A DNA stretch of 55,058 bases, from IMG/VR virus record IMGVR_UViG_3300021520_000004, positions 1 through 55,058 of that record. One strand, written 5' to 3'. Position 1 is the stretch's first letter. Every line of letters starts with the position of its first letter. Below, piece after piece: positions 5,076 to 44,552 of this stretch. Position numbers and translations under genes: made by a program. The notes under the pieces are model-generated. The model searched no databases. It had not been told where the DNA came from and worked only from the letters and a program-made list of their open reading frames with translations. This DNA is from a virus. Its lineage: Duplodnaviria > Caudoviricetes.

Positions 5076-5145
5076 CGGCTTATCAGAGAGCGGCGCCCGT
5101 AGGACGGCAATCCCCGGGCGCCAGGATAGCGAAAGGACCGCTACC

Positions 5146-5361
5146 ATGAAAGATTCTACTGCATCCATCCCCACCACGTACAGCATCGCCATGCTCGCCC
5201 GCCGCAACAAGTACAACGATCCGATCATCCTGCTCGAAACACGCGACGCATACACGGCATGGTCGCAATGGCGGACCCTTTGCCCAGACCTGCCGGACCG
5301 CACTATCCTGAGCGCTTGGGATGGACACAGCCGCCGCACGTTGGCCGTTAAGGTCGCGTGA
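5146..5361 (+). CDS. Hypothetical protein
   Basis: AAAGGA RBS, 71 aa, first ORF after the promoter. Confidence 0.55.
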   Translation: MKDSTASIPTTYSIAMLARRNKYNDPIILLETRDAYTAWSQWRTLCPDLPDRTILSAWDGHSRRTLAVKVA

Positions 5362-5430
5362 TGACCACCACGACCGAATCCCCCCACGGGGGGACGCAGG
5401 AAGCCGAAGAGAAATGAGACAGGAGGAACG

Positions 5431-5727: not shown

Positions 5728-6084
5728 ATGAACAAGCGTCTGACCCTCACCCGCGGGCAAGACCCCTTCCCGATCGTCTCGTTTCGCGATATCGCCAGGC
5801 GCAGCGGAACGCTGGAGGACACGGTGAGCAAATGGATACTCCGCGGTCGGGGACCGAAACCCATCGGCGCCTGCGCCGCCGGCGCCCTGTACTGGTGGCC
5901 GGACTGGCTGGAGTGGTTCGCCGCCAAGCGGCCGGCGGTGCTCGCTGCAATGAGCAATGGGGGGACTCCGGAATCGGCTCTGGCGCCCATCAAGCCGCGG
6001 CCGCCCTGCAATAGCGACGCTGTGGACTCCTGTGCCGACTGCGAATGCACCGCGGACGAGTGCGATTTGAGGGAGGAGTCATGA
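5728..6084 (+). CDS. AlpA/excisionase-like HTH protein with Cys-rich tail
   Basis: IVSFRDIARRSGTLEDTVSKWILRGRGPKP..LYWWPDWLEWF; AAAGGA RBS; ATGA overlap with the recombinase. Confidence 0.7.
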   Translation: MNKRLTLTRGQDPFPIVSFRDIARRSGTLEDTVSKWILRGRGPKPIGACAAGALYWWPDWLEWFAAKRPAVLAAMSNGGTPESALAPIKPRPPCNSDAVDSCADCECTADECDLREES

Positions 6085-23756: not shown

Positions 23757-23915
23757 CTCCTGTGTCTGGGACGTTACAGTACACCATACATCGACTGCCC
23801 CTCTCATGCAAGTAGCCCGCCGGGTCGAAACCTGACGGGCTACTTTGCGAGACGGCCCTGGACACGAAAGGTGGTCAGTCCGTCCTGCCGGTGATCAATG
23901 TCGGGCTCTGCCGGC

Positions 23916-24116
23916 CTACCCGTCCTGCTTGGGCGCGGTGTCCCGGTGATGCTCGGACAACCACGTTTTCACGAGATCCCAGTCGTACACCAGGGTGCCC
24001 CCGTACTCGGCGAGATACTCGGGGAAGTCATCGAAGCGGTAGCGCCACTGGCGCACGGTGCCGGGTAGCACCCCGCATTCCCTGGCTATCTCGCGAGTAG
24101 TCACCACGGTGTCCAT
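23916..24116 (-). CDS. AlpA/excisionase-like HTH protein (leaderless), paralog of 22167-22352
   Basis: MDTVVTTREIARECGVLPGTVRQWRYRFDDFP..YGGTLVY aligns with METLLTTKDIAKLAGCRPVTVRSWRAKHGDFP..YGDTPVF. Confidence 0.8.
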   Translation of the reverse strand: MDTVVTTREIARECGVLPGTVRQWRYRFDDFPEYLAEYGGTLVYDWDLVKTWLSEHHRDTAPKQDG

Positions 24117-24122
24117 GCGGCC

Positions 24123-24131
24123 ATTGTACCA
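24123..24131 (-). promoter_or_regulatory. Extended -10 promoter, leaderless
   Basis: TGG-TACAAT 6 nt upstream of the ATG at 24116. Confidence 0.7.
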
Positions 24132-24291
24132 CGGATGTCCTGATGTGTAACGTGTGAGGTACTCACTGTCATCGCTGACCGCTCCCACTCCTTCAAGGAG
24201 GGGGCGGGGGGGGTGGATGGTTTGCTGGTTCTTCCTCGGTGTGTCCTAGGTTTGTTCCTCCCTAGGTAGTAAAGATAAGCAGTCCCATTCC

Positions 24292-24377
24292 TGTGGACAA
24301 CTGCCACTAAGCCAGGACTGAACCCGTTTCATCATGTGTGAAATGTTGTTCACAACCTGTGGATACTGTGTGGATAA
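24292..24377. promoter_or_regulatory. Cluster of four DnaA boxes
   Basis: TGTGGACAA 24292, TTGTTCACA 24346, TGTGGATAC 24358, TGTGGATAA 24369 in an AT-richer intergenic region. Confidence 0.75.
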
Positions 24378-24381
24378 CGAC

Positions 24382-24427
24382 AAAAAGGCCCCCGCCTAGA
24401 CCGTTGGGCGTCGGTCTAGGCGGGGGC
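24382..24427 (-). terminator. Strong intrinsic terminator ending the late operon
   Basis: Perfect 16-bp stem GCCCCCGCCTAGACCG/CGGTCTAGGCGGGGGC followed by CTTTTT on the minus strand. Confidence 0.9.
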
Positions 24428-24451
24428 AGCCGGGGAGGGAGAGAACTTGGG

Positions 24452-25246
24452 TCAGAGTCCGCGAATCATCGGACCCGACCAGTCGATAGCCAGAGCGGAG
24501 ATCTCCTCGCCGCAGAACTTGTGCGCCACGCGCGACGGCCGGGGGCGCTTGCGGTCAACACCCGTGCGCCCCGGTACCAACGATGGGCCGTCGGCATGGT
24601 CGGCAAGACAGGGCCACGTGTACCATGCGCGAATGCCCCACTCCTCCCAGTAGCGCGAGAGCCTGAGATCGTAGTTCAGGATGTCCACCAGGGGGTCGCA
24701 GAACTCGATCATCGGCACCACCGTCTCGGTCGGCACGACGATGAGCGGACCCCAGTGAATCTGTCGCATGGTGATCCACGATGCGCCCTTGCGGTCGGCG
24801 AGCGCGACGAGATCCTTCACCTTGTCGTTCTGGGGCCTCAGACGGCCCACGTAGCCCACGAGGGGAGCTTCGGGAGGGATGTAGGCCAGAGCGCGCTCCA
24901 GGCCCGCCAGGAGGTCGTGAGGGATCAGTACGTCATCCTGGAGGACGAGGTGATGGGTGCAGTCGGGATCGGCCGCCAGCATACTGCGCCGACCGGTGTC
25001 CCATCGGTCCTGCAACTGATCCCAGACCACCGGCACCTCGCGGTCGAGCTTCCCGATGAGATGCTCGACCTGTCCCGCTCTGGCCGGGTGCGCCATGATG
25101 GCGGCCGAGAGCCGGATCTCCCTGTCGGAGGGTATCGTCCGAGGGAGGGGGGCTTCACGCTGTGGTTCCCGCGGCGCTCGCACTGGTTCCGGTCGCTCGC
25201 GCTTCGCCTTCTGCATCTGGGCGTTGGTGAAGATGGGGCCGTTCAC
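24452..25246 (-). CDS. Glycosyltransferase (GT-A-like), paralog 3
   Basis: LSAAIMAHP.R..WDTGRR..THHLVLQDD..WYTWP.LADH. Confidence 0.8.
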   Translation of the reverse strand: MNGPIFTNAQMQKAKRERPEPVRAPREPQREAPLPRTIPSDREIRLSAAIMAHPARAGQVEHLIGKLDREVPVVWDQLQDRWDTGRRSMLAADPDCTHHLVLQDDVLIPHDLLAGLERALAYIPPEAPLVGYVGRLRPQNDKVKDLVALADRKGASWITMRQIHWGPLIVVPTETVVPMIEFCDPLVDILNYDLRLSRYWEEWGIRAWYTWPCLADHADGPSLVPGRTGVDRKRPRPSRVAHKFCGEEISALAIDWSGPMIRGL

Positions 25247-25962
25247 TGCCCACCCCGCCGGTCGATAGTGATCTCGGGGAGTAGGCCGCCGGCCGCATTC
25301 ACCACAGGCCCGTCCCAGTTCACCTTGAGCGCCGACCGGTCCCGGCCCAGAAAGTGTTCGGCCACCCGGCCGCCGGGATGACCCGGTCGTGCCATCGGCC
25401 GGCCGGGTACCACCGAGGGACTCTCACGATGGTCGACCAGCGACGGCCACGTGTACCAGACCCGCACCCCGCGCTCCAGCTCCCAGTAGCGGGAGAGGCG
25501 CCGGTCATAGTTGGGGATGGTCGTGAGCGTGTCGCAGTGAGCCACCATCGCGTCGATGGCCTCGGTGGGCACCACGACAAGCGGTCCCCAGTTCAGCGTG
25601 TGCATGGTCAGGAACGACGCCTTCATGCCGTCCGCCGTCGTCACGGCATCCGCAAGGAAGGGCAGCCGCGGCCGGTAGCGACCCACGTAGCCGCACAGAG
25701 GGGCCTCAGAGGGCACGTAGGCGAGCGCGGCGGCCAGACCGGCCAGGAGGTCGCGACAGGGCACCGCGTCGTCCTGGAGGACCACGTGATGCGTACAGGC
25801 GGGGTCGTAGGCGAGCATGGCACGGCGGCCGGTATCCCAACGGTCAGCCCACCGGTCCCAGATCACCGGGAGCTCGGGGTCGCCCAGTGCGGCGAGCAGA
25901 TCCGGTATGAACGACTGGCGCATCGGGTGGGCCATGATGGCCGCCGACAGGGTGACGGTCAT
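25243..25962 (-). CDS. Glycosyltransferase (GT-A-like), paralog 2
   Basis: LSAAIMAHP.R..WDTGRR..THHVVLQDD..WYTWPSLVDH. Confidence 0.8.
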   Translation of the reverse strand: MTVTLSAAIMAHPMRQSFIPDLLAALGDPELPVIWDRWADRWDTGRRAMLAYDPACTHHVVLQDDAVPCRDLLAGLAAALAYVPSEAPLCGYVGRYRPRLPFLADAVTTADGMKASFLTMHTLNWGPLVVVPTEAIDAMVAHCDTLTTIPNYDRRLSRYWELERGVRVWYTWPSLVDHRESPSVVPGRPMARPGHPGGRVAEHFLGRDRSALKVNWDGPVVNAAGGLLPEITIDRRGGQ

Positions 25963-26531
25963 GCTTCCTCCTTGCGGAAGACCCACATGCCGATCTCCTC
26001 CTCCATCTCGTCCTCCGGTCTGCTCACGATGCCCCAGCCCTTCGGTACGTCATCCAAGAACCTCCGGTGCAGGACATGCGCCCGCCCGCGCTCCACCTTG
26101 TTACTGGACTGGATGCAGACCAGGGGCGCCGACCCGAAGACGAGCTCCAGGTGCCGGCGGTAGAGAGTGTCATCCACCAGATGGAAGATGATGTCCAGGG
26201 AAAGCGCGAGGTCGGCCTCGGGCAGTGGCGGCGGGGTGACTCCATCATAGAGGGCGAAGGCCCAACCGGGGCGGTCACCACAGGCGTCCTTGCACAGTCG
26301 TAGGCCCTCGGGCGAGACGTCCAGACCCAGGTACCGAGCCACCCGCAGCCGCGAGGCCACCCGGCCATCACCGCAGCCCCAGTCGATGACGGACGCCACG
26401 CCCTCGCTCTCGATCAGGGTATTGACGAAATTCCCCTTGGTCCGCGCCGCCCTGCGCCGGGAGCCCAAGCCGGAGCCTTTGCCGCGGCGGTAGCGGTCGT
26501 CCCAGTAGGCCAACGTGTCGAAGTCGCTCAT
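25959..26531 (-). CDS. Class I SAM-dependent methyltransferase
   Basis: YWDDRY..G.GSG.GS, VIDWGCGDG, YLGLDVS, SLDIIFHL. Confidence 0.88.
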   Translation of the reverse strand: MSDFDTLAYWDDRYRRGKGSGLGSRRRAARTKGNFVNTLIESEGVASVIDWGCGDGRVASRLRVARYLGLDVSPEGLRLCKDACGDRPGWAFALYDGVTPPPLPEADLALSLDIIFHLVDDTLYRRHLELVFGSAPLVCIQSSNKVERGRAHVLHRRFLDDVPKGWGIVSRPEDEMEEEIGMWVFRKEEA

Positions 26532-27118
26532 GCTTCATCCAATCTCACGAAATCACCCAGAAGACGCAGCTTCTCAATGAGCCGCGGCAAGGCGAACAAG
26601 GTGGCATCCGGCCATGCATGGAGAACGATCTTCACGGGGTCTGCCTTGGAAGCGATGACGTCTTTCACGCACTCGAGTATCGACGCCGGCGTGGCCTCGG
26701 GATCCCAGTCCCTCGGGTCGACATCCCAGCCCACATGGCGATACCCAAGGTTGTCGAGAAGTTCTGTCATGCCTGGATGGCGTGGGCCCGCTCCGTCCCC
26801 GTAAGGCAGTCGAAACCAGGGCCGGGGGTCAACCCCGCACACGGCTACGATGGCGGCCTCGGCCTTGGTCACACTTTCCTTGGCCCCCGGTTCCCGCAGC
26901 TTGGTCATCGGCGCATGCCAGTGCGAGTGGTTCCCGATGAGGTGACCATCGTCGCGGATCCTCCGCAGCAGATGCGGATGCGAGAGCGCCCAGGCTCCTT
27001 GCACGAAGAAGGTGGCCTTCACCCCTTCGGCCTTGAGTATCTCCACCATGAGTTCGGGGTTCTCGGGGTCGCAGGGTCTATCCGGGTGTTCGGTGTCGAT
27101 CGTGAGCGCGATACGCAT
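26528..27118 (-). CDS. Polysaccharide deacetylase (NodB/CE4)
   Basis: ALTID, ATFFVQG, GNHSHWH, FRLPYG, WDVDPRDW, IVLH. Confidence 0.9.
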   Translation of the reverse strand: MRIALTIDTEHPDRPCDPENPELMVEILKAEGVKATFFVQGAWALSHPHLLRRIRDDGHLIGNHSHWHAPMTKLREPGAKESVTKAEAAIVAVCGVDPRPWFRLPYGDGAGPRHPGMTELLDNLGYRHVGWDVDPRDWDPEATPASILECVKDVIASKADPVKIVLHAWPDATLFALPRLIEKLRLLGDFVRLDEA

Positions 27119-27781
27119 TCAGCATCTCCTCCCGGTCACGGGCCCCAGCCAGTTCCATTCAAGGGCCGAGGCATCTTCGCCAATGAACCGAAACGCTCGC
27201 GTGAACCCGCTGCCCAGAAGCGACGGACCCTCGCGATGGTCCACCAATGACGGCCACGTGTACCAACAGCGCCAGTCCATCACGTCACGGCAATACCGGC
27301 CGATGCGCTGGTCGTCTGCCGGGAAGGCAGCGCCACCTTCCCACGCGAGCATCGGTTCGATGATCCAAGCCGGGAGGACGATCGCGAGTCCCCACCGGAG
27401 CGTCGGCAGCACGAGCCATGAGCAGTCGTCCGCCTCAGCGAGCGCCACCCGCTGCCGCACGCGCGCTACTCCCGTGGCACCCGGGTGAGGCGTCCCCACG
27501 AAGAGGGAGGCGATGGTGTCGAAGGGAGCGCGGGAGGCGAGCGCGGCTTCGAGCCCGGCCCGAAAGTCGCGGCAGACGAGCGCGTCATCTTGGAGAACGA
27601 GGTGGTGAGTCGCGTCCGGGTGGTACATCCTCCAGGCCCGGGAGCATGTGTCCCATAGGCCGAGGCTGCGGTCCCAAGATACGGCGCTGTCCTCGAGGCC
27701 TACCTTCTCCTGGAGATCGTGGACCCATCCTGAGCGCGACGGGTGAGCCATGATGGAGACGGAGAGGCGGGTCTCGCTCAC
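27119..27781 (-). CDS. Glycosyltransferase (GT-A-like), paralog 1
   Basis: LSVSIMAHPSR..WDT..THHLVLQDD..WYTWPSLVDH. Confidence 0.8.
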   Translation of the reverse strand: MSETRLSVSIMAHPSRSGWVHDLQEKVGLEDSAVSWDRSLGLWDTCSRAWRMYHPDATHHLVLQDDALVCRDFRAGLEAALASRAPFDTIASLFVGTPHPGATGVARVRQRVALAEADDCSWLVLPTLRWGLAIVLPAWIIEPMLAWEGGAAFPADDQRIGRYCRDVMDWRCWYTWPSLVDHREGPSLLGSGFTRAFRFIGEDASALEWNWLGPVTGRRC

Positions 27782-28380
27782 TACTTGAAGCCGACGGCCG
27801 GATGCGGCTGTAGATCCCAGCAGCGCCAGCCGCCGCGGCGCACCAGTTCGTTCACCGCTTCAGTGACTCCGCGGTTGCACTTCTTCTCGCTGTCGTAGTC
27901 ATCGAAGCAGACGATGGCCCCCGGCGCGAGATGCGGTTCCCATGCGGTGAAGTCGCCCATCACGCCCTCATAGGTGTGGTGAGAGTCGATGTGGAGAAGG
28001 CCCACGGGGCGGCCGGTCCACTCCTTGCCAGCGTCGGCGCCGAAAGCCCGGAAGGCGGTGATGCGTTCGCCCAGTCCCGTGCTCCCCACCTGAGAGCAGA
28101 ACGCCTTCATGGTGTCCTCCTCTGCGAAACCGAAGCGGCCGGTGATGTTACCGGCGAGGTTCCAGGGGTCGATGCACCACACCTTGGCCCCGTTGCCGCA
28201 CTGGGCGCCCTCGGCGAGGTAGCACCCGCTCTTGCCCTTGTACGACCCGCACTCCACGATCACTTCGTCGGCCGGTACGGTTGCGGCAAGCTCGGCAAGT
28301 CGCAGGCCCATCTCGTCAGAGATCAGCCCCTCAAGCGCGGCCAGCATCTTCAGACGGTCCTCCGGTATGGATACGCTCAC
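27781..28380 (-). CDS. Class I SAM-dependent methyltransferase (Methyltransf_24-like)
   Basis: VECGSYKGKSG, IDPW, LLHIDSHHTYEGV..D, FDDY; GAGGAG RBS before GTG. Confidence 0.88.
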   Translation of the reverse strand: MSVSIPEDRLKMLAALEGLISDEMGLRLAELAATVPADEVIVECGSYKGKSGCYLAEGAQCGNGAKVWCIDPWNLAGNITGRFGFAEEDTMKAFCSQVGSTGLGERITAFRAFGADAGKEWTGRPVGLLHIDSHHTYEGVMGDFTAWEPHLAPGAIVCFDDYDSEKKCNRGVTEAVNELVRRGGWRCWDLQPHPAVGFK

Positions 28381-28393
28381 AGCGGTTTTCTCC

Positions 28394-29089
28394 TCAGTCG
28401 GCGCTGATTGACTCAGTGTGACCACGCGAAATGTCAGAGACGGAAGGCAGGGGGCGCTTCCTGAGCCGATGTTGATTTCCCCACCAGTGAAGACAAGAGG
28501 CGTCAGGGTACTGGTCGTAGTGCCCCAGCCGATCAAGTTGATGACACCGCACCGGGTAGAACCACTCCTCTGGAAACACCTTCACGTCCGGGTGCCTCCG
28601 CAGGACCGAAGTGAGGTAGTGCGGCCCGGTCATCTTCGCCGGTCGAGAGCCAGCCAGCCGACTCACCCGGTCCGGTAGACCGGCTACCAGATCGAACAGC
28701 AGGGGATGGCCAGGGACGCAACCCATGATGGCGTTGTTGGCAACCTCGTCCTGAATCTCCCACGCGCAGAAAGCATCCACGTCCTCAAGCAGGGCGTCGA
28801 TGGGCTTCAGGCACTCGAAGTCCGTGTCGATGTAGACCCCGCCGTAGCGGTGGAGGATCTCGAAGCGCGCGAGGTCGGAACGGAACTGTCCCTCGAAGCC
28901 GGGGCAGATGTCCGAGGCCGCATCGTAGAGTCGTTGGTTCACCAGGGGCGGAAGTTCGGCCTCCGTCCACAGGCACATCTTCCAGTCTGGATGAAGCCGC
29001 TGCCAGCCCTCTCCGAACGTCTCGAAGAGGGTTGGCATGGCGGGGCCCACCCAAATCCTGTGGAACACCCGTGGGATGGTCTGGTCCAC
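28394..29089 (-). CDS. GT32/OCH1-like DxD glycosyltransferase
   Basis: IPRVFHRIWVG, RSDLARFEIL..YGGVYIDTD, TGP. Confidence 0.92.
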   Translation of the reverse strand: MDQTIPRVFHRIWVGPAMPTLFETFGEGWQRLHPDWKMCLWTEAELPPLVNQRLYDAASDICPGFEGQFRSDLARFEILHRYGGVYIDTDFECLKPIDALLEDVDAFCAWEIQDEVANNAIMGCVPGHPLLFDLVAGLPDRVSRLAGSRPAKMTGPHYLTSVLRRHPDVKVFPEEWFYPVRCHQLDRLGHYDQYPDASCLHWWGNQHRLRKRPLPSVSDISRGHTESISAD

Positions 29090-29262
29090 TATCCCTGCGC
29101 TTCCTGGATCAGATGGGCCTCGTGGGCCTCATGAGCCGTGTGAGCGGCTTGGCGGACATCGGTGGCTACGGCGATGCCGTGCGCTCTGTGGGCCGCCTGA
29201 CGAGCGACGGTCGCCACATGGGCGACGTGGTTGACGTGGGCGGTGCGGCGGGCAGATGCCAT
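29089..29262 (-). CDS. His/Ala-rich peptide 2 (57 aa)
   Basis: AAGGAGG RBS; MASARRTAHVNHVAHVATVARQAAHRAHGIAVATDVRQAAHTAHEAHEAHLIQEAQG; stop overlaps the GT32 start (TAGTG). Absent from the ORF track. Confidence 0.8.
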   Translation of the reverse strand: MASARRTAHVNHVAHVATVARQAAHRAHGIAVATDVRQAAHTAHEAHEAHLIQEAQG

Positions 29263-29303
29263 GTGTGGATCCTCCTTCTCCCGGTGCGGGCTTCAGAGCG
29301 TTG

Positions 29304-29390
29304 CTACAGGGTCGCCAGATGTGCCAGATGGGCGACGTGGGCGACGTGGGCCAGATGGGCGAGGTGGGCGGTGCGACGTGCAGATGCCAT
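29304..29390 (-). CDS. His/Ala-rich peptide 1 (28 aa)
   Basis: AAGGAGG RBS; MASARRTAHLAHLAHVAHVAHLAHLATL. Confidence 0.78.
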   Translation of the reverse strand: MASARRTAHLAHLAHVAHVAHLAHLATL

Positions 29391-29407
29391 GTTGCTGCCT
29401 CCTTCCG

Positions 29408-30019
29408 TCAGGAGCAGGGATAGATATGTTGGCCCGTGCCGTCCTCGATCAGCACGAACCGGTCTGGACCGCCCTGATGCACCTCGAGGAAGAGGCGGGC
29501 CGTGGGTGCTGGAACCGCCGCCGGGGGGGTCGGGGTCGCCGGCGGCGGTTCCAGTGGTTGTGACGGCGGCGCGGGGATGGGGTCCGCAGGCACCGTCGGA
29601 GGATCTACAGCGGGGGCAGGAAGCACACGAGCACATGCAGCGGCAACTGCGGCCTGGGCTGTGGCCTTGCTGGCCGGCGCGAGCAGGGCGGGGTACAAGA
29701 CCTTGGAACTCAGCACTGTGAGGAGGATCCCCGATACGATGGCAGAGAGCCACCAGGGTAGCCATGTGGGCCACTCGTTCCCGGCCAGGGACGCGCCGAC
29801 ATCGAGCTTCAGCGCCAGACATGCTCCGATGCAGATCGCCCCGGCCAACCCCATCCAGACCACCTTGTCGGGCAGACTGGCCTTCCACTTGGCGGGGATC
29901 CTCTTCCACCAGTAGAAGGCGCCCTTCACCCCTTGGGTGATGGCGAGGGCGATGAACGGGATCGCCATCGCGATGACGCCGACGGTAGCCGGACTGAGCG
30001 AAACCGGGAAGTCCTCCAT
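29408..30019 (-). CDS. Holin-like membrane protein with Pro-rich C-terminus
   Basis: Three hydrophobic segments, Pro/Ala linker, located in the lysis cassette. Confidence 0.7.
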   Translation of the reverse strand: MEDFPVSLSPATVGVIAMAIPFIALAITQGVKGAFYWWKRIPAKWKASLPDKVVWMGLAGAICIGACLALKLDVGASLAGNEWPTWLPWWLSAIVSGILLTVLSSKVLYPALLAPASKATAQAAVAAACARVLPAPAVDPPTVPADPIPAPPSQPLEPPPATPTPPAAVPAPTARLFLEVHQGGPDRFVLIEDGTGQHIYPCS

Positions 30020-30020
30020 C

Positions 30021-30380
30021 CTACCAGGGCGGTTTGTCGTGGGTCTTGGGATCCACTACCTTCATCTCATCGTCCGGTGTGGGCGCCATGACGGGGTCTT
30101 GGCGCAGTTTGTTCTGGTAGGCGGCCGTCACTCCGAGGATGGCTCCGCAGACGACCAGGGAATTCAGCACGGCTAGCACGTAACCCCACCAGAGTAACCC
30201 CGGCGTTGAGGCTGCGACTGCCGCCACCATCACGGCGGCGCTCAAGCCAAGAGCACAATAGCGATTGATCTGATCGGTGTACTTTTCACCGATAACGCTT
30301 TTGAGCACAGTCAAAAGTAGACTAACCGCAGCAACAGCTCCCGGAATAGTCGCCAGTTGCAATAACGAAAACTCAGTCAT
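30021..30380 (-). CDS. Holin-like membrane protein
   Basis: 119 aa, three TM segments. Confidence 0.7.
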   Translation of the reverse strand: MTEFSLLQLATIPGAVAAVSLLLTVLKSVIGEKYTDQINRYCALGLSAAVMVAAVAASTPGLLWWGYVLAVLNSLVVCGAILGVTAAYQNKLRQDPVMAPTPDDEMKVVDPKTHDKPPW

Positions 30381-30420
30381 GCCTTTGCGCTCCTTCTCAT
30401 TAGAACAGCCGGACGGAAGG

Positions 30421-30920
30421 TCAGAACCCAACGTCAGCCAAGCGCGCCATGTATCTCGCGTCCTTCTCCTCCAGGTCGGCCACGTATTGGTCAAGGCCGG
30501 GTTTGTCACCGTAGTAGATGGTGGCGAACTCGCGGTATCGTTTCTGCCGCAACAGTGGGATGTAGGCCCCGCCGGCCGACTGCTTGAGGAAGCACCCCCA
30601 GGCGCGCATACCAACATCCGGTGACGGGAAGATGAACCACACGCCCTCCCCCACTCCGGTCATCTTGCCGCTTGAGTAGTCGTGCCAGCAGGCGTTCTCC
30701 GGTGTCCGGTCACGGTAGCGGATGTTGCCGTAGTTACAGGCGACGGCAGTGATGGGACCGCCAAGTATGGGGTCCCCCAAGGATGACTCGTTGCCGAGGA
30801 CGCACAGTTGCCCGACCACTGGGACGCCGAACTCCTCCAGGTTTCGGAGAATCATCACTCCAGTGATTGGACTGTGATGCGGCCCGAACCATTGGGCGTC
30901 GAGGAGGTCGGCTAGGGCTT
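30421..30920 (-). CDS. Lysozyme-like (glucosaminidase-type) domain, probably reached by -1 frameshift or non-standard start
   Basis: Frame open upstream of the GTG at 30858 (ALADLLDAQWFGPHHSPITG); NESSLG, NYGNI, FPSPDVG, YY motifs. Confidence 0.65.
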
Positions 30921-31871
30921 TGGGAGAGGCCAGATTTCCCCTTTGGGATCGAGCTTCAACCTCTCGGCGGCCAGGTCGTGGTCAAGGACCGCCTGCAGCC
31001 GAGTGGCCTCTGCGATGTTGCCCGCAGCCTTGGCCTGGTCAATGAGCCGGAGGAACTTCAGCTCCATGCTGTCGCTCCGAGCCTTCGCCAACCAGAAGTG
31101 GTCTTGTTCGGAGAGCATGTCTTCCTCCTGTGCTTGGGTGGCCGTGAGCAGTTGCGCTTGGGTGATGTACGTGCCGGGGCAGGACTTTGGACTCTGCCCG
31201 TTGATGTAGCACTGCCGGTGCATGGTCAGGCCGTCACGGGTCTTGAGCGCCCCGCCATTGCTGCCGAGATTCACCCACTGCAGCGGGATGTTGGCCCACT
31301 CGCAGATGATGCGGGCGGCGCGGCCGGCCATCGCCAGTTGAACCGCCGTGAGCGGCCCCGCGTCGCCGTTGTGGACTTGCTCCATGTGAAGCACGTACCC
31401 GTTCCAATCGGTCGCCCCGACCTGGTTGTACAGGGACGGATGGTGCCCGATCCAGATGCCGTCCCACGAGAGCCAGAACTGCGGCCCGTGACCGTAGGGG
31501 AAGCCCCGAGCGTCCCGGAAGTAGTTGAAGCACCCCTGCACCGAAGACGCTCCATGCCACTGGGCCTCGGTCGGCGACTCAGTGTGGTGGAACACGAAGA
31601 AACGTGGCGCTCCCCCAGGGCGAGGCTGAGAGAGCAGCCACAGCTTCAGGTCGTCCAGGCTCAGGTGCCGGATGACCAGCATATGACTGGACTCGTCTTG
31701 GAACACTCCACCAGTGGCAGGAGCTTCCGCAGCGACCGGCTCGGGGTGAGTCGGCCACCAGTGGACGCGGCAGAGCACGGGTGCCTTAGTGTCCGCGTAC
31801 TCTGCCGCTCTGAGGGCGGTCACCTCTACTAGCTGGCCGCACTCCGCGCAGGGCAGGTAGATGGTGTCCAT
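30912..31871 (-). CDS. N-acetylmuramoyl-L-alanine amidase (Amidase_2) endolysin
   Basis: VFHHTE, MEQV, MHRQ, KSCPG; ATG overlaps the upstream stop (TGATG). Confidence 0.85.
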   Translation of the reverse strand: MDTIYLPCAECGQLVEVTALRAAEYADTKAPVLCRVHWWPTHPEPVAAEAPATGGVFQDESSHMLVIRHLSLDDLKLWLLSQPRPGGAPRFFVFHHTESPTEAQWHGASSVQGCFNYFRDARGFPYGHGPQFWLSWDGIWIGHHPSLYNQVGATDWNGYVLHMEQVHNGDAGPLTAVQLAMAGRAARIICEWANIPLQWVNLGSNGGALKTRDGLTMHRQCYINGQSPKSCPGTYITQAQLLTATQAQEEDMLSEQDHFWLAKARSDSMELKFLRLIDQAKAAGNIAEATRLQAVLDHDLAAERLKLDPKGEIWPLPKP

Positions 31872-32953
31872 CACTTCACCAGCCAACGAGCCAGAAGTAG
31901 ACACAGCTCAAAGCGGGTCAAGAAGTCCAGCCACCGCTCCTCCAGCCAGACCAGACCGGGGAAGGTCGCTTTCACCCAACCCCTCGTCGCCAAGGTCTTC
32001 CAGTTGTCCACGTCCTGTACCCCGCTGATCCCGGCCCGCCGTGCCACGGTGATGACTTGGTGCTGAGTGACGTTGTTCTTGGGCCGGAACATATCGTCGG
32101 GGTAGCCCTGCATCAGCTTGGCCGTCTTGACGAGGTTGCCCTCTGGGAACCAGCCATTCGAGGTCGGCGGGTGGACGGACCCGTTCAAGTCGGTGTAGCC
32201 GTTTGGAAAGTCGCCCCAGGGGCGAGTCGCGAGGTTGGGTGCATCGATGATGGTGTGCGCTTCCATGGTCGAGCGGTCGAGGACGGGCTTGGTGTAGACG
32301 AGATTGCCACGGTCTCCGTACTCGTCACCCCAACTGTTCCAGAGCTTGTACGGGTTGGCGTCTTGGGGGACGTAAGCCACGAACAAGATGCGGTGGTAGC
32401 CACGCCGAACGTCGCCGTATCCTCCTGGCATGGGGACCACTCCACCGACGCGGGCCTTGTCGAACAGCGACTGCCAGACCTCGATGGAGATTGCCACGGG
32501 ACACTTCGAGGCTATCGCCATCTGCACCAGCGAGTCAGGGTCGTGCTTGGTTCCGGCATAGGACTCGATGCGATGAGTCCGGGCATTCTCATCAGCCCGT
32601 GCAGTGCGGTAGAACGGCGTCTCGCAGATTCCACGGTCGCGCTGGATGGTGTAGGCGACTCGTGGGTAAGTGCCGGGTTCGTCGTTCCCATCCTTGAGCT
32701 TGCACAGCTCGTACAGGTCGTCGGGGGAGAGGTCGTTCACCGTCCCCTGCTGCCGCTCGAAATACCACGACTGCTTGGCGTGGGCGTGACCGACACACCG
32801 AGGCTGACTACCTTGATTGCTATGGACGCCCAAGCCGGGGCGGTAGTCGAATGGCTCGACTGCTACGGTGGGGACGTACAGGCTTGCCAGGAAGTCGCGC
32901 TCATCTGGGGGGTTCAGTTGGCAGCCCAGTCCGAACTCATTCTGCATATCCAT
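31871..32953 (-). CDS. Papain-like C1 cysteine peptidase with SLH-like C-terminus
   Basis: DERD, NQGSQPRCVGHA, GYHRI, WNSWGDEYGDRG; LMQGYPDDMFRPKNNVT. Confidence 0.85.
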   Translation of the reverse strand: MDMQNEFGLGCQLNPPDERDFLASLYVPTVAVEPFDYRPGLGVHSNQGSQPRCVGHAHAKQSWYFERQQGTVNDLSPDDLYELCKLKDGNDEPGTYPRVAYTIQRDRGICETPFYRTARADENARTHRIESYAGTKHDPDSLVQMAIASKCPVAISIEVWQSLFDKARVGGVVPMPGGYGDVRRGYHRILFVAYVPQDANPYKLWNSWGDEYGDRGNLVYTKPVLDRSTMEAHTIIDAPNLATRPWGDFPNGYTDLNGSVHPPTSNGWFPEGNLVKTAKLMQGYPDDMFRPKNNVTQHQVITVARRAGISGVQDVDNWKTLATRGWVKATFPGLVWLEERWLDFLTRFELCLLLARWLVK

Positions 32954-38448: not shown

Positions 38449-39192
38449 TTACGTGTACCTCCGGCGGTAGTCGGCCCGCAGCACGAAGTTGGCCGAGGAT
38501 TTGGTGATGACGTTGGACCCCACGATGAGGGCCGGGAAGTCAGCATCGGTCGCCGTGTTCGCCCAGTCAAGGACGCCGTTCAGCTTGGGCGTCGGGGCCT
38601 GGGGGTCAGCGTCCACGGTGAGGACATCGCTGCTTGTCAGTGCCCCTTCATATTCGAAGGTTTCTCCGTTCACGGTGAAGGACAGGCCGGACGCAAGCGT
38701 TGCGCCGACCGTGCAGGTCCACAGGGGATAGCAGGGCACGTCTCCCCCGACGGCCATGGGGTTCGTCACCGGGTTGGCCGTGACCGGCGTCACGTCCTCC
38801 CAGTAGGGGTAGCGGTCGAAGACGAGATCGAACTGCGCCACGCGCATGTAGTACGGCAGTTGCTCGATGTCGATGTTCCAGCCCCGGCCTCGCGCCATGA
38901 TCTGCTGGGCGGTGCGGTCCACCACCGTGAGTACCTTGTAGCCAAGGTCAGGGTGCACCCAAGCCTTGAGCGATGCCAGCTTGCTCAGAAGGTCGGCATG
39001 GTCAGTCCCGGCCACTACCACGTTGAAGCTCAGAGGGCGGGCCACCAGGCGCCCGACGCTCTCCACGGGGATGTCCTGACCCGGCAGGTACAGTTGCTGA
39101 ATCTCGCGGCCGGGAAGGTCGAGCGGGCCGCGGACGCCGGGGGTGACGAGGTACGTGGAAAGCTCATGTTGGTCAAAGACGACGTTTGACAT
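38449..39192 (-). CDS. Distal tail protein (Dit)
   Basis: Follows the tape measure; PYW, GGDVPCYP, FPALIVGSN, YRRRY. Confidence 0.8.
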   Translation of the reverse strand: MSNVVFDQHELSTYLVTPGVRGPLDLPGREIQQLYLPGQDIPVESVGRLVARPLSFNVVVAGTDHADLLSKLASLKAWVHPDLGYKVLTVVDRTAQQIMARGRGWNIDIEQLPYYMRVAQFDLVFDRYPYWEDVTPVTANPVTNPMAVGGDVPCYPLWTCTVGATLASGLSFTVNGETFEYEGALTSSDVLTVDADPQAPTPKLNGVLDWANTATDADFPALIVGSNVITKSSANFVLRADYRRRYT

Positions 39193-42100
39193 CAGTTCCA
39201 GTCCCCCGATACGACGTGGATGTTCCGGTTGATCTGGTCCGACACGAGCGTGGAGAGCTTGCGAATGTCCACACTGCCGAAGTCATCCACCAGGTGGAGG
39301 AAGATGTGCTGCTCGGCTTTCGCGCCCCCCATGATGTCGTGGAGGCTCGATACCGTGCTTCCCACCACGTCCTGGCCCTTGAAGGGGCTCATGATGGTCG
39401 GGACGAATCCCTCCAGCCACTTGTCCAGGTTGGCGAGGGGACCGGCCTTGGCGGGCGAGTGAAGTTCCAGGTAGCGGGCAAGCGCATCGGCAGCCGCGAT
39501 ACCGGCTTGCTCGATGAGGGGGATGGCGGCCACAACCCCGGCCGCCAGACTGGCGCCCAAGGTGTAGCCGGCGTTGTAATACTTGCCCTGCTCGCCCAGC
39601 AGTCGGCTCTCCTCATCGATGACTGCCTGCATCTGGTCGCTGTAGGACTTGATGAGCGCGTCCAGCGCGGCTTGGTAGGCGATCTGAGCGTCCTCACGGA
39701 GCTTCTGGAAGTGCGCGTCGGCTTCGTCCTTCTCCGCCTGATGGGCGGCCCGCACGTCATCCAGGGCGGCAAGTTCGGCTGCCTGCTGGGCGGCGAGTGA
39801 GGCGTTGGAGGCGTCGATCTGATCCTGGAGGGCCACCTTCTCGGCTTCCTGCTGAGCCGTCAGTTGTTCGAGCGCCGCGGCCTTCTGCTCCTCAAGTTGA
39901 CGCCGGGCGTCCTCACGCGCCCACGCGGAGTCCTCCTGGGCCATCGCATCTCTTTGGTCTTGGATGGCGCCCTCAAGTTCACGCATCCGTGCGATGTCGC
40001 CCTCGGTGTAGTAGCCCTGCCCCTGAAGAATGCGAAGCTCGTCCTGGCTTTTGCCGAGTTCACGGAGCGCCTTGTTGCGTTGCTGCGCTCGCGTAATCGC
40101 CCGGTCATTTGAGTCCATGAGCGAGAGTTGGTCGTCGTAGAACTTGGTGAGCGCCTTGACTTCATCGTTCAGAGAATCGCTGAGGTCCGACACGCGCTTG
40201 TCGTTGGCCGCTTTGAGCGCGGCATAGTGCGCGTTGATGGCCGCTTCTTGTTTCTTGAGTTCGACCTCCATGGCAACGCCACGCTCGGTCCAGGCCGCGT
40301 TCCAGTCCGCTTGGGCGCTGTCGATGGCCTTGTTCGTCTCGGCGAGCGCGTTCTGCAGCGCCGTCTTCGAGGCGTTGAACATGGCCGTGAGCGACGAGAG
40401 CGCGGCTGCCGCATAACCCTGGATAGCCTCGGGGGTGGCGGCGTTCCGCATCTGGCCCATCTGGGCCTCGAACTGCTGGCCCAGTTGCTGCATCAGGACC
40501 GGCAGTAGCGCCAGCTGCTGCGCGGCTGAACCGGATGCGTCGGCCAGGATCTGGATCTGCATGGCGGTCTGCGCGGCGGCTGCGCCCCAGAAGCGGGTCG
40601 CTTCGGCCGCGGCGTCCATGACCGGGTTGAGACTGGCGATCTGGGTGTCGAGGGCGAGGATGTCCACCCTGAGAGAGGACAGTTGCTCGTCGGTCGCTCC
40701 CCCGGCCTTCTTCAGGTCGTACAGCGCCTGATTCGCGGCCTTCTGGGCCTCGAGCGCGGCGAGTTGCTTGTTCAGCGCAGCCTGTTGCTCTGCTGCAGAT
40801 GCGCCACGGGCCTTGAGGTTCTCAAGCTCTGCGGCGTAGACGTTCGCGGCCGCCGAGGCCCGCGCGTATGCAGCCGAGGCCGCGGCGAACCCGGCCTCTT
40901 GCTCGGGGGTGAAGGTGACCGGAGTGGCCCCGCCCGTGAAGTCGTTGAAGCCCCCACCGGCATATCCACGTATCCCGCCCCGAGCGTACACGCCCAGGAT
41001 GCGGCCGGTCTGCGCCCAGATGTTGACTGAACGACTGCGCCGGTCGGGCGCCAGGGGGATGAAGGCCTCACCATGCGTTTCCGGTTCGGCCCACTGCACG
41101 AGGCCGCGGGGGCTGACGGCCGGCTGGATGACCGCCTGGGTGGGCAGCATGATGCCACCCTGCGCCAACGGGACGTTCGGACTCCAGTCTGGACTGTTGA
41201 ATATACGGTTATCGGTGTTGACGATGGGTATCTCCTGGGCGCCGAAGGCCTTGAGGATGGTGTTCAAGGCTCTAGCCAGGGACACCCCGACCCCGTCGAT
41301 GGCCGCGTCGATGGCGGCGGTACCGGCGTTGAACTGGGTCACAAGCGCGTCGGCGATGTGCTGGCCGGCGGTACCCGCGAGGGCGCTCATCTCGGCATCG
41401 TATGTGGCGAGGGCGGTCGCCGTCTCTTCACTGCGCTTCGTCGCCATGTCGCGGAGTATCCCGAAGGCGCGGTCCTGGTCTTCCTGCGACCCCGCTATCA
41501 GTTCCTCGGCCATCGTCTGCTTCTGCTCGGCGGTGAGGCCGGATGCGAGGATGGCAGCCTGGATGTCGGGGGGCAGGTGCGTCATGTTGACAACGTACTT
41601 GCCGGCTGCGGTCGCGGCGTCGGCCCAGGTCTGGGTCATCTCCCCGATGGTGAACGCCGCTTCTTCGGCGGTGACCTTGATCGCCTCGATGGCGTCCTTC
41701 TGCGCGGTCGCACGTTCCTGGATTGCCGCCTTCTCGGCGTCAGCCTGGGCGGTGATCGCGTTCTCCTCGTCCTGGATAGTCTTGATGTGGGCGGCGGCAA
41801 TAGCCCCGCCCAGGTCGAAAGTAGCGATCGCGCCGAAGGTAGCCTTCTTCTGCCACTCCGATTCCTGGGCCTTGAGGTCGGCAAGACGCGCATCCTTGAC
41901 CTTCTCTATGGCGGCGATCTCCGCGTCGGCCTGTTTGTCGACGGCCTTCTTCTGCGCGTCTGCGGCCTTCTGGTTGGCCGCGTTGGTGGCTGCGGCCTCG
42001 TCGTTCAACTGATCCTGCTTGGCCTTGAGGGCCTTGTTGTAGGCCCCACCCATGTCGTACTGAGCCTCGAGTTCCTTGACCCAGGCCTTGGTGCCCTCAT

Positions 42101-44552
42101 CGATAGCGTTCTTGAGGTCTTCTTGAGCCTTGGCCGCCGCGTCGGTGGCTGCGGTACTCTGGTTCTGCCGGCGCGTGATCTCCGCGATGGCATAAGCGAA
42201 GGCGTCTGCCGCCGACCGGCCTTGCCCGAAGGTGGTCGCGTTCTTGGCATCCCCGCCGGCCAGGGCATCACGGTAGACCTCGGCGAACTCGTGCAGTTTC
42301 ACGGAACTCGACCCGAGGGACTGCAGCATGAAGTCGGCCATGTCCTTGAACTTGCCCTTCGCCAAAGTCGTGTCACCGAGCATCTCGGCGAAGGCGCGCG
42401 CTCCAATCTGGAAGTCAGGAGAACTGGCGAGTGCCTCGATAGCTGGGATGTACCCTGCCGTGAACCCCTCGGCGGCGATGATGCCAAGACTTCTGCTCTC
42501 AGCGTCCGCTAGCACCTTCGCCTGGAGGTACTGCTCACGCGCCACCGCATTGCGCGGTTCCTTCTGTCGCGCCTCGAACGCCGCGTCGAACTCGGTCTTG
42601 ATCTTGGCTGCCGTTACCTTGGCCGCTTCCACCACCGCTTCGGTGTCTATGGCGGCACTGCCGATCTTCACCGGCAGGGTGACATTGGCGGCGTCGAACA
42701 GTGCCTGGACAGTCGCCGCGATCTCTTCGGGGGCCATGCCGTGGAGTTGCATCTGGTACGCGATCTCGATGGCTTTGGCGCCGGCCGCGGCGACATCATC
42801 CTTCAGTTTCTTGATCTGCTGGATGAGAGCATCGTTCTTGGTGAGGAACTCAGACGATGCCTGGGTAACCCCGTTGTACTGAGCGATGGCGATCGCGCCC
42901 CAGTTGCCGCCCATGCTCTCCGCGAGCGTCTGGGTGGACTTGACTAGGGCGTTGGTCTGAGCCGTAAGGTCTTCCTGGTGTTTCTTGCCCTGCTGGTAGG
43001 CATAGCCGATCATCGCGATGGCGGCGATCGCAAGGGTGACCGGGTTGATGAGTGCGTAGAAGGACGCACCGAGAACCTTAATACCCGCTCCGAGGCCTGC
43101 CGCATTGGTGCCTGCCCCAGCCATCGCGGCCCCCATAGCCGCCGCACGGCCACCCATAGCCCCCATAGCCGGGTACGTCAAAGCTATGGCTCGGGTGACG
43201 CCACCCGTGGTGATCGCCACACTGTTCATGCTCGCCGTCGTCAGGCTCATCGCGGCCCCGAGCGCCCCGGTAGTCTCGGTCGCCACCAGAGCGGCCCCGG
43301 TGTACGCCGCCCACGCCTGGGTGATGGTCTTGACGACGGTGAGGCCGACGATGCCGTTCTTGAGCGCCACGAGTCCTGACGCGACCTTGGAGATGATCAA
43401 GACCCCCAGACCAAGCTTGGCGAAGAACGGCAGGATGCCCCCAGTCATGGCGAGGCTGAAGCCCTTGCCCACAGCCTCTGCCACGTCGCCCAGAGCGTCC
43501 AGGGACGACTGGATGGTGCGGAGGGCATCGTAGACCCCGGGCGCCTCGTTCTTGAGGGCGTTCATGAAGCCGATGCTCTTGGCCTCGGCGTTGAAGGCCG
43601 ACAGCCAATCGCGGATCCCCTTGAGCTTGTCCTTGAGCGTGTCGAAGATCCCGGCCTCGGCGATGCCGGCCATCTGTTTCAACTGGTCAGCGGTGGTGGT
43701 GGTGAGGCCCGACCATGTGTCGGACATCTTCTCCATCATGCCGCCGAAGCGCGCCTCGATACCCGCGATGAGGGCGGGGATGCCCACGTCGGCCGCGATG
43801 CCACTAGTCTCCGAGATCTTCTGAAGCTCGGCCACGCTCTTGCCCATGGCTTTGGAGAGCACGTCCCAGGCAGGGACACCGGCCATGGCGATCTCACGCA
43901 TCTCACGGGCGGTGATCTTGCCCATGGACACCATCTGCCCGATAGAGAACGACATACGGTTGAAGACCTCACTGGAGCCGCCAACGGCGGCCGTGGCGTC
44001 ACCGATGGCCTTGAGCGTCTTCTCCACGTCCTTGGCCGCGACACCGTAGGCGATGAGCCGCTGTGCGCCGGTCACGAACTCGGGGAACTTGAAGGGGGAC
44101 TTCGCGGCCATCGCGTAGAGGCCACTGAGCATGTCCGAGGCGGCAGAGACGGACCCCAGCATGGAGGTCATGGCGATAGTGGACTGCTCCATCATGGCGT
44201 CGAACTGGATACCGGATACGGTCGCGGCCGTGAATGCCGCGGTCAGCGCACCGATCCCGGCCATACCGGCGTAGATGGTGGTGGACATGGCGAGGTACTT
44301 GAGACGCCACTCGAGCATGCCGAGGGTGGTGTGCATGTCCCGGCCGTGCTTCTCCACCGCGGTCCCGGCCGTCTTCATGCTGTTGGAGATCTGGTTGCCC
44401 GCCTGAGTGGACGAGTTTCCGACGTTGCCCCAGGCCTTCTGCTGGTTCTGACCGTGTGCGGCCATAGTCTGGTCGAACTTCTGCAACGCGGCATAGGCCT
44501 GCTGATCCATGACGCTGATGACGTACTCTAGGCGGCCACCTTGGGTGGGCAA
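39192..44552 (-). CDS. Tape measure protein
   Basis: 1786 aa Ala-rich; AAKSPF..GQM..GK tape-measure domain; AEPETHGEAFIPL; HSP near the C-terminus. Confidence 0.95.
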   Translation of the reverse strand: MPTQGGRLEYVISVMDQQAYAALQKFDQTMAAHGQNQQKAWGNVGNSSTQAGNQISNSMKTAGTAVEKHGRDMHTTLGMLEWRLKYLAMSTTIYAGMAGIGALTAAFTAATVSGIQFDAMMEQSTIAMTSMLGSVSAASDMLSGLYAMAAKSPFKFPEFVTGAQRLIAYGVAAKDVEKTLKAIGDATAAVGGSSEVFNRMSFSIGQMVSMGKITAREMREIAMAGVPAWDVLSKAMGKSVAELQKISETSGIAADVGIPALIAGIEARFGGMMEKMSDTWSGLTTTTADQLKQMAGIAEAGIFDTLKDKLKGIRDWLSAFNAEAKSIGFMNALKNEAPGVYDALRTIQSSLDALGDVAEAVGKGFSLAMTGGILPFFAKLGLGVLIISKVASGLVALKNGIVGLTVVKTITQAWAAYTGAALVATETTGALGAAMSLTTASMNSVAITTGGVTRAIALTYPAMGAMGGRAAAMGAAMAGAGTNAAGLGAGIKVLGASFYALINPVTLAIAAIAMIGYAYQQGKKHQEDLTAQTNALVKSTQTLAESMGGNWGAIAIAQYNGVTQASSEFLTKNDALIQQIKKLKDDVAAAGAKAIEIAYQMQLHGMAPEEIAATVQALFDAANVTLPVKIGSAAIDTEAVVEAAKVTAAKIKTEFDAAFEARQKEPRNAVAREQYLQAKVLADAESRSLGIIAAEGFTAGYIPAIEALASSPDFQIGARAFAEMLGDTTLAKGKFKDMADFMLQSLGSSSVKLHEFAEVYRDALAGGDAKNATTFGQGRSAADAFAYAIAEITRRQNQSTAATDAAAKAQEDLKNAIDEGTKAWVKELEAQYDMGGAYNKALKAKQDQLNDEAAATNAANQKAADAQKKAVDKQADAEIAAIEKVKDARLADLKAQESEWQKKATFGAIATFDLGGAIAAAHIKTIQDEENAITAQADAEKAAIQERATAQKDAIEAIKVTAEEAAFTIGEMTQTWADAATAAGKYVVNMTHLPPDIQAAILASGLTAEQKQTMAEELIAGSQEDQDRAFGILRDMATKRSEETATALATYDAEMSALAGTAGQHIADALVTQFNAGTAAIDAAIDGVGVSLARALNTILKAFGAQEIPIVNTDNRIFNSPDWSPNVPLAQGGIMLPTQAVIQPAVSPRGLVQWAEPETHGEAFIPLAPDRRSRSVNIWAQTGRILGVYARGGIRGYAGGGFNDFTGGATPVTFTPEQEAGFAAASAAYARASAAANVYAAELENLKARGASAAEQQAALNKQLAALEAQKAANQALYDLKKAGGATDEQLSSLRVDILALDTQIASLNPVMDAAAEATRFWGAAAAQTAMQIQILADASGSAAQQLALLPVLMQQLGQQFEAQMGQMRNAATPEAIQGYAAAALSSLTAMFNASKTALQNALAETNKAIDSAQADWNAAWTERGVAMEVELKKQEAAINAHYAALKAANDKRVSDLSDSLNDEVKALTKFYDDQLSLMDSNDRAITRAQQRNKALRELGKSQDELRILQGQGYYTEGDIARMRELEGAIQDQRDAMAQEDSAWAREDARRQLEEQKAAALEQLTAQQEAEKVALQDQIDASNASLAAQQAAELAALDDVRAAHQAEKDEADAHFQKLREDAQIAYQAALDALIKSYSDQMQAVIDEESRLLGEQGKYYNAGYTLGASLAAGVVAAIPLIEQAGIAAADALARYLELHSPAKAGPLANLDKWLEGFVPTIMSPFKGQDVVGSTVSSLHDIMGGAKAEQHIFLHLVDDFGSVDIRKLSTLVSDQINRNIHVVSGDWN

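Follow-up and report, generated by a model that had tools for sequence, protein, structure and literature searches.

A putative virion-glycosylation cassette preceded by two orphan histidine/alanine-rich small ORFs in an uncultured freshwater phage

Phage-encoded glycosyltransferases (GTs) that act on the virion are described for the mycobacteriophages Che8, Corndog and Myrna, and the part of PMC12363180 that treats capsid glycosylation (citing Freeman et al. 2023) gives Che8 gp110 and Corndog gp38 as essential for it. We describe here a locus of related make-up in IMG/VR virus record IMGVR_UViG_3300021520_000004, which is an uncultured high-GC tailed phage from lake water. The whole record of 55,058 bases was analysed and is called the window below. 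On its minus strand two small open reading frames (ORFs), pep1 (29304-29390) and pep2 (29089-29262), stand before seven genes for glycosylation, methylation and deacetylation enzymes. A preliminary description had taken this arrangement for a possible system resembling those of ribosomally synthesized and post-translationally modified peptides (RiPPs). We prefer, with somewhat better than even confidence, a different reading, in which the enzymes form a virion-glycosylation cassette and pep1 and pep2 are lineage-specific accessory peptide genes, not RiPP precursors.

The locus resembles the Che8, Corndog and Myrna systems, as the relevant part of PMC12363180 presents them, in having phage GTs expressed with the late genes and in the match of its phrog_854 enzymes to the Che8 gp109/110 region. 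Relatives of the window cassette also adjoin a capsid gene, and the cassette lies on the same strand as the structural genes. Compared with the Che8-type systems the window adds a GT32-type enzyme, two methyltransferases, a CE4 deacetylase and the two orphan His/Ala peptide genes, and it belongs to an uncultured freshwater phage. In the Actinoplanes phage phiAsp2, the genes pas33-pas35 encode a glycosyltransferase, an O-methyltransferase and a glycosyltransferase; this cluster is translationally coupled and follows the tail genes. No other phage matches the phrog_854 enzymes better (38%), and the Methyltransf_24 enzyme of the window matches phrog_2675, the family of the long pas34-type methyltransferase. 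Unlike the window, the phiAsp2 locus has no His-periodic small ORF, GT32 or CE4.

Small peptide genes beside a glycosyltransferase are also seen in the sublancin-type glycocins. These have a dedicated GT2-type S/O-glycosyltransferase, leader cleavage, an exporter and a precursor that co-occurs with the enzyme, features that were not found in our scans of the window. Short repeats dominated by Ala and His are known from designed His/Ala/Leu membrane peptides and from Plasmodium falciparum HRP2, which are His-rich and respond to pH or metal. pep1 and pep2 share this composition with no sequence relationship; unlike those peptides, they keep a strict 3-residue period and are not amphipathic as an alpha-helix. 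As to position, the two genes recall the actinophage accessory lysis factors LysZ and LysY (PMC13123898), since they come last in the lysis cassette, with the endolysin and holin genes before them. The 203-aa protein encoded upstream of pep1, with its hydrophobic segments and Pro-rich linker, is loosely like LysZ as described in PMC13123898. LysZ is a membrane protein with a transmembrane (TM) helix and a long helical body, whereas pep1 and pep2 have no TM segment.

The enzyme cassette and its relatives

We observed that the order proposed in the preliminary description (GT32, methyltransferase, GT, CE4, methyltransferase, GT, GT and terminator) was confirmed, the enzymes by Pfam and PHROG scans. 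All seven genes are on the minus strand. The first encodes a GT32-type (Gly_transf_sug, DXD) glycosyltransferase (28394-29089; PF04488, E 1.4e-12) that starts at a GTG without a well-spaced Shine-Dalgarno (SD) sequence, the only such element upstream being an AGGGA 2 nt before the GTG. It is followed by a Methyltransf_24 methyltransferase (27781-28380; PF13578, E 4.8e-21; phrog_2675), whose likely start is the SD-led GTG at 28380, the longest ORF reaching to 28536. The next genes encode a glycosyltransferase whose start overlaps the preceding stop as TAGTG (27119-27781; phrog_854), a CE4 polysaccharide deacetylase (26528-27118; PF01522, E 2.4e-24), a class I S-adenosylmethionine-dependent methyltransferase (25959-26531; phrog_3382), and two more glycosyltransferases of phrog_854 at 25243-25986 and 24452-25246, the latter being the final gene of the operon. 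The three phrog_854 enzymes are paralogous and match that family at E 9e-32 to 2e-34. The product of 25243-25986 matched 293 phage records by tblastn, led by phiAsp2 pas35 at 38% and then by cluster F mycobacteriophages, among which was the Che8 gp109/110 region (32% identity, E 1e-8).

For GT32, 138 relatives were found in the protein collection at E <= 1e-10, and 47 of them were aligned. Among solved structures, a profile of GT32 relatives matched Legionella SetA, a yeast-type alpha-1,6-mannosyltransferase and large toxins in their glucosyltransferase domains, which fits a GT-A enzyme with possible activity on protein. The seven enzymes and their neighbours, scanned against Pfam and PHROG, showed only GT, methyltransferase and CE4 domains, with no RiPP recognition element (RRE), leader protease or exporter.

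We then compared 81 loci encoding GT32 relatives, of which 80 are viral loci from the 47-sequence alignment and one (L174, 62% identity) came from a metagenome scan. Short contigs with 72-73% identical GT32 relatives (P0005, P0006) and five contigs of the cluster of the window GT32 itself (P0004) lie outside this set. All six frames of each locus were searched for four His at 3-residue spacing, three AH-x units or an N-terminus of the MASARR type. The three matches obtained were all in non-gene frames, so that a gene for a comparable peptide, His-periodic or with a like N-terminus, was present in 0/81 loci. An ORF of 18-90 aa that was led by an SD and stopped no more than 80 nt from the start of GT32 was present at 4/79 loci, and none of these was His-rich.

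In the closest viral relatives (L175, L176, L178-L181 and L187; GT32 identity 50-55%) the gene order was major head protein, GT32, methyltransferase, phrog_854 GT and head-tail adaptor. The L175 head protein belongs to phrog_267 (E 1.4e-72), and the methyltransferase of its cassette is 54% identical to the window enzyme at 25959-26531. The three genes of the L175 cassette occupy 2553-5413, inserted between the genes for the major head protein and the head-tail adaptor. L177 has the layout of the window, with lysis-type membrane proteins followed by tRNA-Met, GT32, a methyltransferase (61% identical to the window Methyltransf_24 enzyme), another methyltransferase and phrog_854 GTs, and no peptides. 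Exactly where the window has pep1 and pep2, L177 carries at 5832-5905 the tRNA-Met and, by eye, a GC-rich inverted repeat. In L174, GT32 begins about 10 nt after a structural gene.

As the same module is next to the capsid gene in the L175-type contigs and behind the lysis genes in the window and L177, it looks like a mobile virion-glycosylation module. The cassette recurs in virion gene clusters without the peptides, and therefore is a module that does not need them; pep1 and pep2 are not a conserved companion of it. Unlike the window gene, GT32 in L177 and L174 has its own SD at normal spacing, and the window GT32 seems from this comparison to depend on pep2 translation for the delivery of ribosomes.

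These results support the earlier view of the cassette as a glycosylation, methylation and deacetylation operon of the actinophage virion type, given the enzyme families, the Che8 and phiAsp2 matches and the capsid-adjacent cassettes. They give no support to the claim that the peptides are substrates of a RiPP-like system. The peptide was absent at all 81 loci, small SD-led ORFs were found at just 4/79, the L175 and L177 cassettes are free of peptides, and the scans showed none of the recognition, protease and export functions.

pep1 and pep2 as probable small genes

The 28-aa product of pep1, MASARRTAHLAHLAHVAHVAHLAHLATL, has six His at 3-residue spacing within AHL and AHV units. The 57-aa product of pep2, MASARRTAHVNHVAHVATVARQAAHRAHGIAVATDVRQAAHTAHEAHEAHLIQEAQG, has the same first nine residues, and its stop codon overlaps the start of GT32 (TAGTG). 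The ribosome-binding site AAGGAGG of pep1 (29398-29404) precedes its ATG by 7 nt and follows the stop of the upstream membrane-protein gene by 17 nt; that of pep2 (29271-29277) lies 8 nt before the ATG, and the gap between pep1 and pep2 is 41 nt. Both ORFs, their AAGGAGG sites, the common 9-residue N-terminus, the His at every third residue and the TAGTG overlap were re-read in the sequence as they had been described. The alternation of CAC and CAT was likewise borne out, the His codons of pep1 being CAC, CAT, CAC, CAC, CAT and CAT, as were the synonymous differences between pep1 and pep2 at codons 4 and 5 (GCA/GCC and CGT/CGC).

AAGGAGG occurs nine times on the minus strand of the window and twice on the plus strand. 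A start codon follows 4-8 nt downstream in 7/9 of the minus-strand cases, those of the prohead protease and major tail genes among them, and the pep1 and pep2 sites rank among the strongest in the phage. His makes up 6/28 residues of pep1 and 9/57 of pep2. When the window was translated in six frames, four His at 3-residue spacing turned up three times, in pep1, in pep2 and in a frame containing stops. The His periodicity is not a chance occurrence. Tandem Repeats Finder reported a 9-bp tandem array of 4.7 copies at 29329-29370.

The GC content by codon position was 0.83/0.48/0.72 in pep1 and 0.81/0.50/0.74 in pep2, the same high-low-high pattern as in the neighbouring genes. Between the two genes, omega by the method of Nei and Gojobori (NG86) was 0.21 for codons 2-20, 0.26 for codons 2-23 and 0.33 for codons 2-28, with an excess of synonymous over non-synonymous divergence (Fisher p 0.013-0.027). 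As this is one sequence with about 20-28 aligned codons within a repeat, the evidence for selection, and for real genes as a whole, is suggestive and not proof. The proportion of synonymous differences (pS) was about 0.5, which suggests that the duplication was not recent. The upstream regions of the two genes differ except for the SD, and the first nine codons encode identical residues.

pep2 was found letter for letter in the ESM Atlas, where only that identical sequence is present, so it had been called by a public gene caller, possibly from the same sample. A contig from an RNA library spans 29045-29234 without a difference, which is weak evidence of transcription since DNA carry-over is possible. 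Together, these signals in the sequence indicate that pep1 and pep2 are probably real, co-transcribed and translated small genes. The proposals that they are genuine genes and under selection at the protein level thus found support, on the strong SDs, the gene-like GC by codon position and the omega of 0.21-0.33, as did the chaining of pep2 to the first glycosyltransferase through the TAGTG overlap.

The region 29080-29420 was also examined as RNA. Its fold energy was no better than that of shuffled sequences (z = +0.66), and Rfam gave only a chance-level match for the peptide region. An RNA element or an attenuator leader of the his-operon type was rejected on the basis of that z value, the Rfam null result and the lack of a terminator-like site at 24427-32200 on the minus strand. 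The frame of pep1 is open for 201 codons, overlapping the upstream gene. A frameshift fusion of pep1 with the upstream membrane protein was rejected by inspection, since no slippery heptamer was seen and pep1 has its own SD and ATG.

When we looked for relatives of the peptides, tblastn with pep2 against 50,697 phage records gave no match. Among 5.8 billion proteins, a word-indexed search turned up no relative of pep2 of either near or longer length, and phmmer against 1.84 billion representatives gave 0 matches at E <= 0.001. A degenerate pattern for the shared N-terminus had three matches in IMG/VR viral contigs, all of them chance by translation, and the N-terminus combined with the His-periodic codon pattern had 0 matches across 185,579 species, each represented by one genome. 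Homologs of the MASARR-type peptides were thus not found by pattern search or tblastn in these phage, viral-contig and genome sets. A literature search on Ala-His repeat peptides in phages found nothing, and brought up only papers on HRP2 diagnostics. pep1 and pep2 would, from these searches, be orphans forming a lineage-specific pair.

The Ala-His repeat by itself is more widespread. A DNA pattern of four AH-x units was found in at least 120 stretches in IMG/VR, and in 65 stretches when the third residue was required to be hydrophobic. These are mostly uniform 9-bp microsatellites in unrelated contigs, and none among the matches listed shared the N-terminus of pep1 and pep2. Among the same matches, the motif lay inside long proteins at 15 high-GC or phage-like loci. 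In L096, L143, L166 and L148 it stands before a peptidoglycan-binding domain of endolysin type, and a head-maturation protease is part of the same proteins. These are large proteins (L096 2463-4049, L148 2114-4810) with a Gly-rich N-terminal stretch and the His/Ala repeat; a cell-wall-binding domain is odd in a capsid-protease protein, and may be a sign that the protein is ejected.

Small Ala-rich helical proteins carry the motif in L069 (3068-3895), L137 (428-955) and L149 (8094-8639). They have 175-275 aa, with a Gly-rich N-terminal stretch, the His/Ala repeat and a long helical tail, and matched no PHROG family. L137 and L149 have in common an N-terminal motif of the RFN-x-NH type, and L096 has a similar one. 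In L072, L140 and L154 the motif precedes a Cys-containing domain, in L058 it lies beside a transglycosylase-like domain behind a signal peptide, in L122 and L159 it is near the C-terminus of tape-measure-like proteins, and L013 and L038 have it within long proteins as well. The His/Ala repeat thus occurs in translated phage proteins, several of them cell-wall-related, which is a lead on function only.

AlphaFold2, run on the single sequence, modelled pep2 as one alpha-helix (residues 2-56, mean pLDDT 96.8). Neither peptide has a TM segment, the best 19-residue Kyte-Doolittle means being 1.13 (pep1) and 0.47 (pep2) against a threshold of 1.6. The hydrophobic moment of pep1 was 0.21 at 100 degrees vs 1.74 at 120 degrees, where a 3-residue period peaks, and that of pep2 was 0.10 vs 0.70. 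Since the moment is low at the angle of an alpha-helix and peaks at the 3-residue period, the picture of an amphipathic helper does not fit a normal helix. The suggestion that the peptides are amphipathic helpers of lysis is weakened by the near-zero alpha-helical moment of pep1 and by the lack of a TM segment in either peptide.

The phage record and the late transcription unit

The window is the whole of an IMG/VR virus record, linear, with a CheckV completeness estimate of 62%. Its G+C is 63%, and no tRNA genes were found in the window. On the minus strand the genes run from terminase, portal, prohead protease, major head protein and major tail protein through a 1786-aa ORF (39192-44552), which only its size and position mark as the presumed tape measure, to tail proteins. 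Next come the genes for a peptidase and an Amidase_2 endolysin, then those for two membrane proteins that each have three hydrophobic segments, and after these pep1, pep2 and the genes for the seven enzymes. The major head protein (48534-49931) and the major tail protein (45487-46491), both on the minus strand, end in Gly-Ser after hydrophobic residues.

The endolysin (30912-31904, minus strand) was identified in the Pfam scan. The first membrane protein is holin-like (30021-30380, minus strand) and its likely start is the SD-led ATG at 30380. Between it and the endolysin gene, a 145-aa ORF without TM segments (30421-30858, minus strand) overlaps a long, probably spurious N-terminal extension of the ORF at 30021-30617. 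The second is the 203-aa protein (29408-30019, minus strand), the last large gene of the lysis region and directly upstream of pep1. Besides its hydrophobic segments it has a long Pro-rich linker and a short C-terminal part, and it matched no Pfam or PHROG family.

The late operon is closed by an intrinsic terminator beyond the last gene (24388-24427, minus strand), with a stem of 16 pairs, 13 of them G-C, and a T tail. A consensus scan of 23800-32200 showed no terminator-like site on the minus strand between the lysis genes and the enzymes, that is, none before 24427. The sole promoter-like match in the same region, 24151-24123, lies beyond the operon terminator. It overlaps the start region of a 90-aa ORF just past the terminator (23916-24188, minus strand), which by eye resembles a DNA-binding protein of the helix-turn-helix kind. 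Everything from the structural genes through the lysis genes, pep1, pep2 and the seven enzyme genes to the terminator would accordingly read as one late minus-strand transcription unit. Stop and start codons touch or overlap at pep2/GT32 (TAGTG), at the Methyltransf_24 gene and the following GT (TAGTG), at GT/CE4 (adjacent, TGAATG) and at CE4/methyltransferase (ATGA). As this chain runs across the whole operon, pep2 is one link of a series of coupled cistrons and has no special partner in GT32.

Megablast with 24300-31950 gave no phage match. Viral contigs scanned with one protein at a time (the endolysin, the 203-aa membrane protein or GT32) likewise gave no match, nor did genome contigs scanned with GT32. 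The region 28300-30100 was present in lake-water and freshwater metagenome runs from 8 studies, 4 of the runs possibly being the source sample. Contigs of four runs, three from DNA and one from an RNA library, were >=99% identical where aligned, apart from one short stray piece. Two differences were seen among these environmental contigs, at 28463 and 29485, and no variant fell within pep1 or pep2.

Possible roles of the cassette and the peptides

For the enzymes we propose that the seven would build methylated, partly deacetylated O-glycans on virion proteins late in infection, as in Che8 and Corndog. Virion protein glycosylation in this phage is what we infer from homology and gene position. 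pep1 and pep2 may have arisen by tandem duplication of a ribosome site and start region, together with expansion of the 9-bp unit. They would have been inserted between the lysis genes and the cassette, and would be translated into Ala/His-rich single alpha-helices, the translation of pep2 bringing ribosomes to a GT32 GTG that lacks a well-spaced SD. Such His-rich helices could have almost no net charge while in the cytoplasm. Opening of the membrane by the holin might then make them polycationic or load them with metal, and their target would be the envelope, or those lysis and deacetylase enzymes that depend on Zn. That the peptides respond in this way to pH or metal during lysis is a guess that we hold with low confidence. 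It is more doubtful still that the His/Ala helices represent a new kind of phage small protein tied to the glycosylation operon, whether as acceptor or carrier of its methylated, deacetylated glycan or as a pH-switched polycationic effector that acts with glycan-modifying enzymes on the host envelope during lysis; the signs of purifying selection, the translation together with the enzymes and the want of known relatives would be in keeping with either form.

The RiPP-like alternative appears very improbable to us. In it the seven enzymes would glycosylate, methylate or deacetylate pep1 and pep2, which would serve as precursors or scaffolds and have a leader in common. The peptides do adjoin the enzymes, pep2 is coupled to GT32, Ser3 and Thr7 of the common N-terminus are conserved despite synonymous change, and protein-glycosylating SetA and the large-toxin glucosyltransferase domains are among the solved relatives of the GT32 profile. 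The co-occurrence test nevertheless gave 0/81 loci with the peptide and 4/79 with a small SD-led ORF, none of them His-rich. The cassette is peptide-free in L175, L177 and L174, and the stop/start coupling spans the whole operon, so that pep2 is not singled out. The common 'leader' is just nine residues, the Pfam and PHROG scans showed no RRE, leader peptidase or exporter, and in Che8 the phrog_854 family is linked with glycosylation of the virion.

A simpler possibility is that pep1 and pep2 are pure translational couplers or upstream ORFs, with pep2 translation feeding the SD-poor GTG of GT32, functionless products and repeats due to slippage. It draws on the TAGTG overlap, on a GT32 lacking the well-spaced SD found in L177 and L174, on the 9-bp tandem array and on the want of peptide relatives. 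We regard it as unlikely, since omega of 0.21-0.33 argues for selection at the residue level, pep1 is uncoupled, lying 41 nt from a pep2 that has its own strong SD, and coupling needs no second copy. That the ORFs are accidental, the stretch from the lysis genes to the glycosylation operon being a repeat region that does not code, is in keeping with their orphan status, with the tandem repeat and with the long accidental frames frequent in high-GC genomes, such as the 201-aa frame overlapping the upstream gene. This is quite unlikely in view of two AAGGAGG at ideal spacing before two ATGs, the gene-like GC by codon position, the synonymous divergence exceeding the non-synonymous, the tight packing between neighbouring genes and the lack of an RNA structure signal. 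The peptides might also help in metal handling. Their His-rich helices would bind Zn, Co, Ni or Mn, and so be a supply or buffer on which the CE4 deacetylase, the DXD glycosyltransferases or the Zn amidase endolysin could draw. CE4, GT-A and Amidase_2 are metal-dependent enzyme families, and the neighbouring enzymes belong to such families; the His content (6/28 in pep1 and 9/57 in pep2) with i,i+3 spacing on a predicted helix would suit metal binding. Relatives of the cassette, however, occur without such peptides, and we find this idea improbable as well.

Some observations weigh against the reading that we prefer, a virion-glycosylation cassette with lineage-specific accessory peptides. The capsid and tail-tube proteins are without an obvious Ser/Thr-rich C-terminal tail. 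Translation and function of the peptides are suggested by intrinsic signals in one sequence and by one paralog comparison with a partly arbitrary alignment. All environmental copies compared are >=99% identical and uniform within the peptides, and are therefore silent on selection there. The high pLDDT of a single-sequence model of an Ala-rich peptide may overstate confidence. Any envelope, pH or metal role is one that we infer purely, and pep1 and pep2 lack a signal peptide, a TM segment and alpha-helical amphipathicity.

If the preferred reading of the enzymes is true, a lineage of uncultured freshwater phages would join those known to glycosylate their own particles, a trait documented so far in a few mycobacteriophages. 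The comparison of loci also shows that the GT32-methyltransferase-GT cassette moves as a module between capsid-adjacent and post-lysis positions. pep1 and pep2 would be a clean example of orphan small genes, with signs of selection, that standard gene calling may miss. The real gain would lie in learning what the His/Ala repeat does, as it recurs in capsid-protease, cell-wall-binding and tape-measure proteins of high-GC phages.

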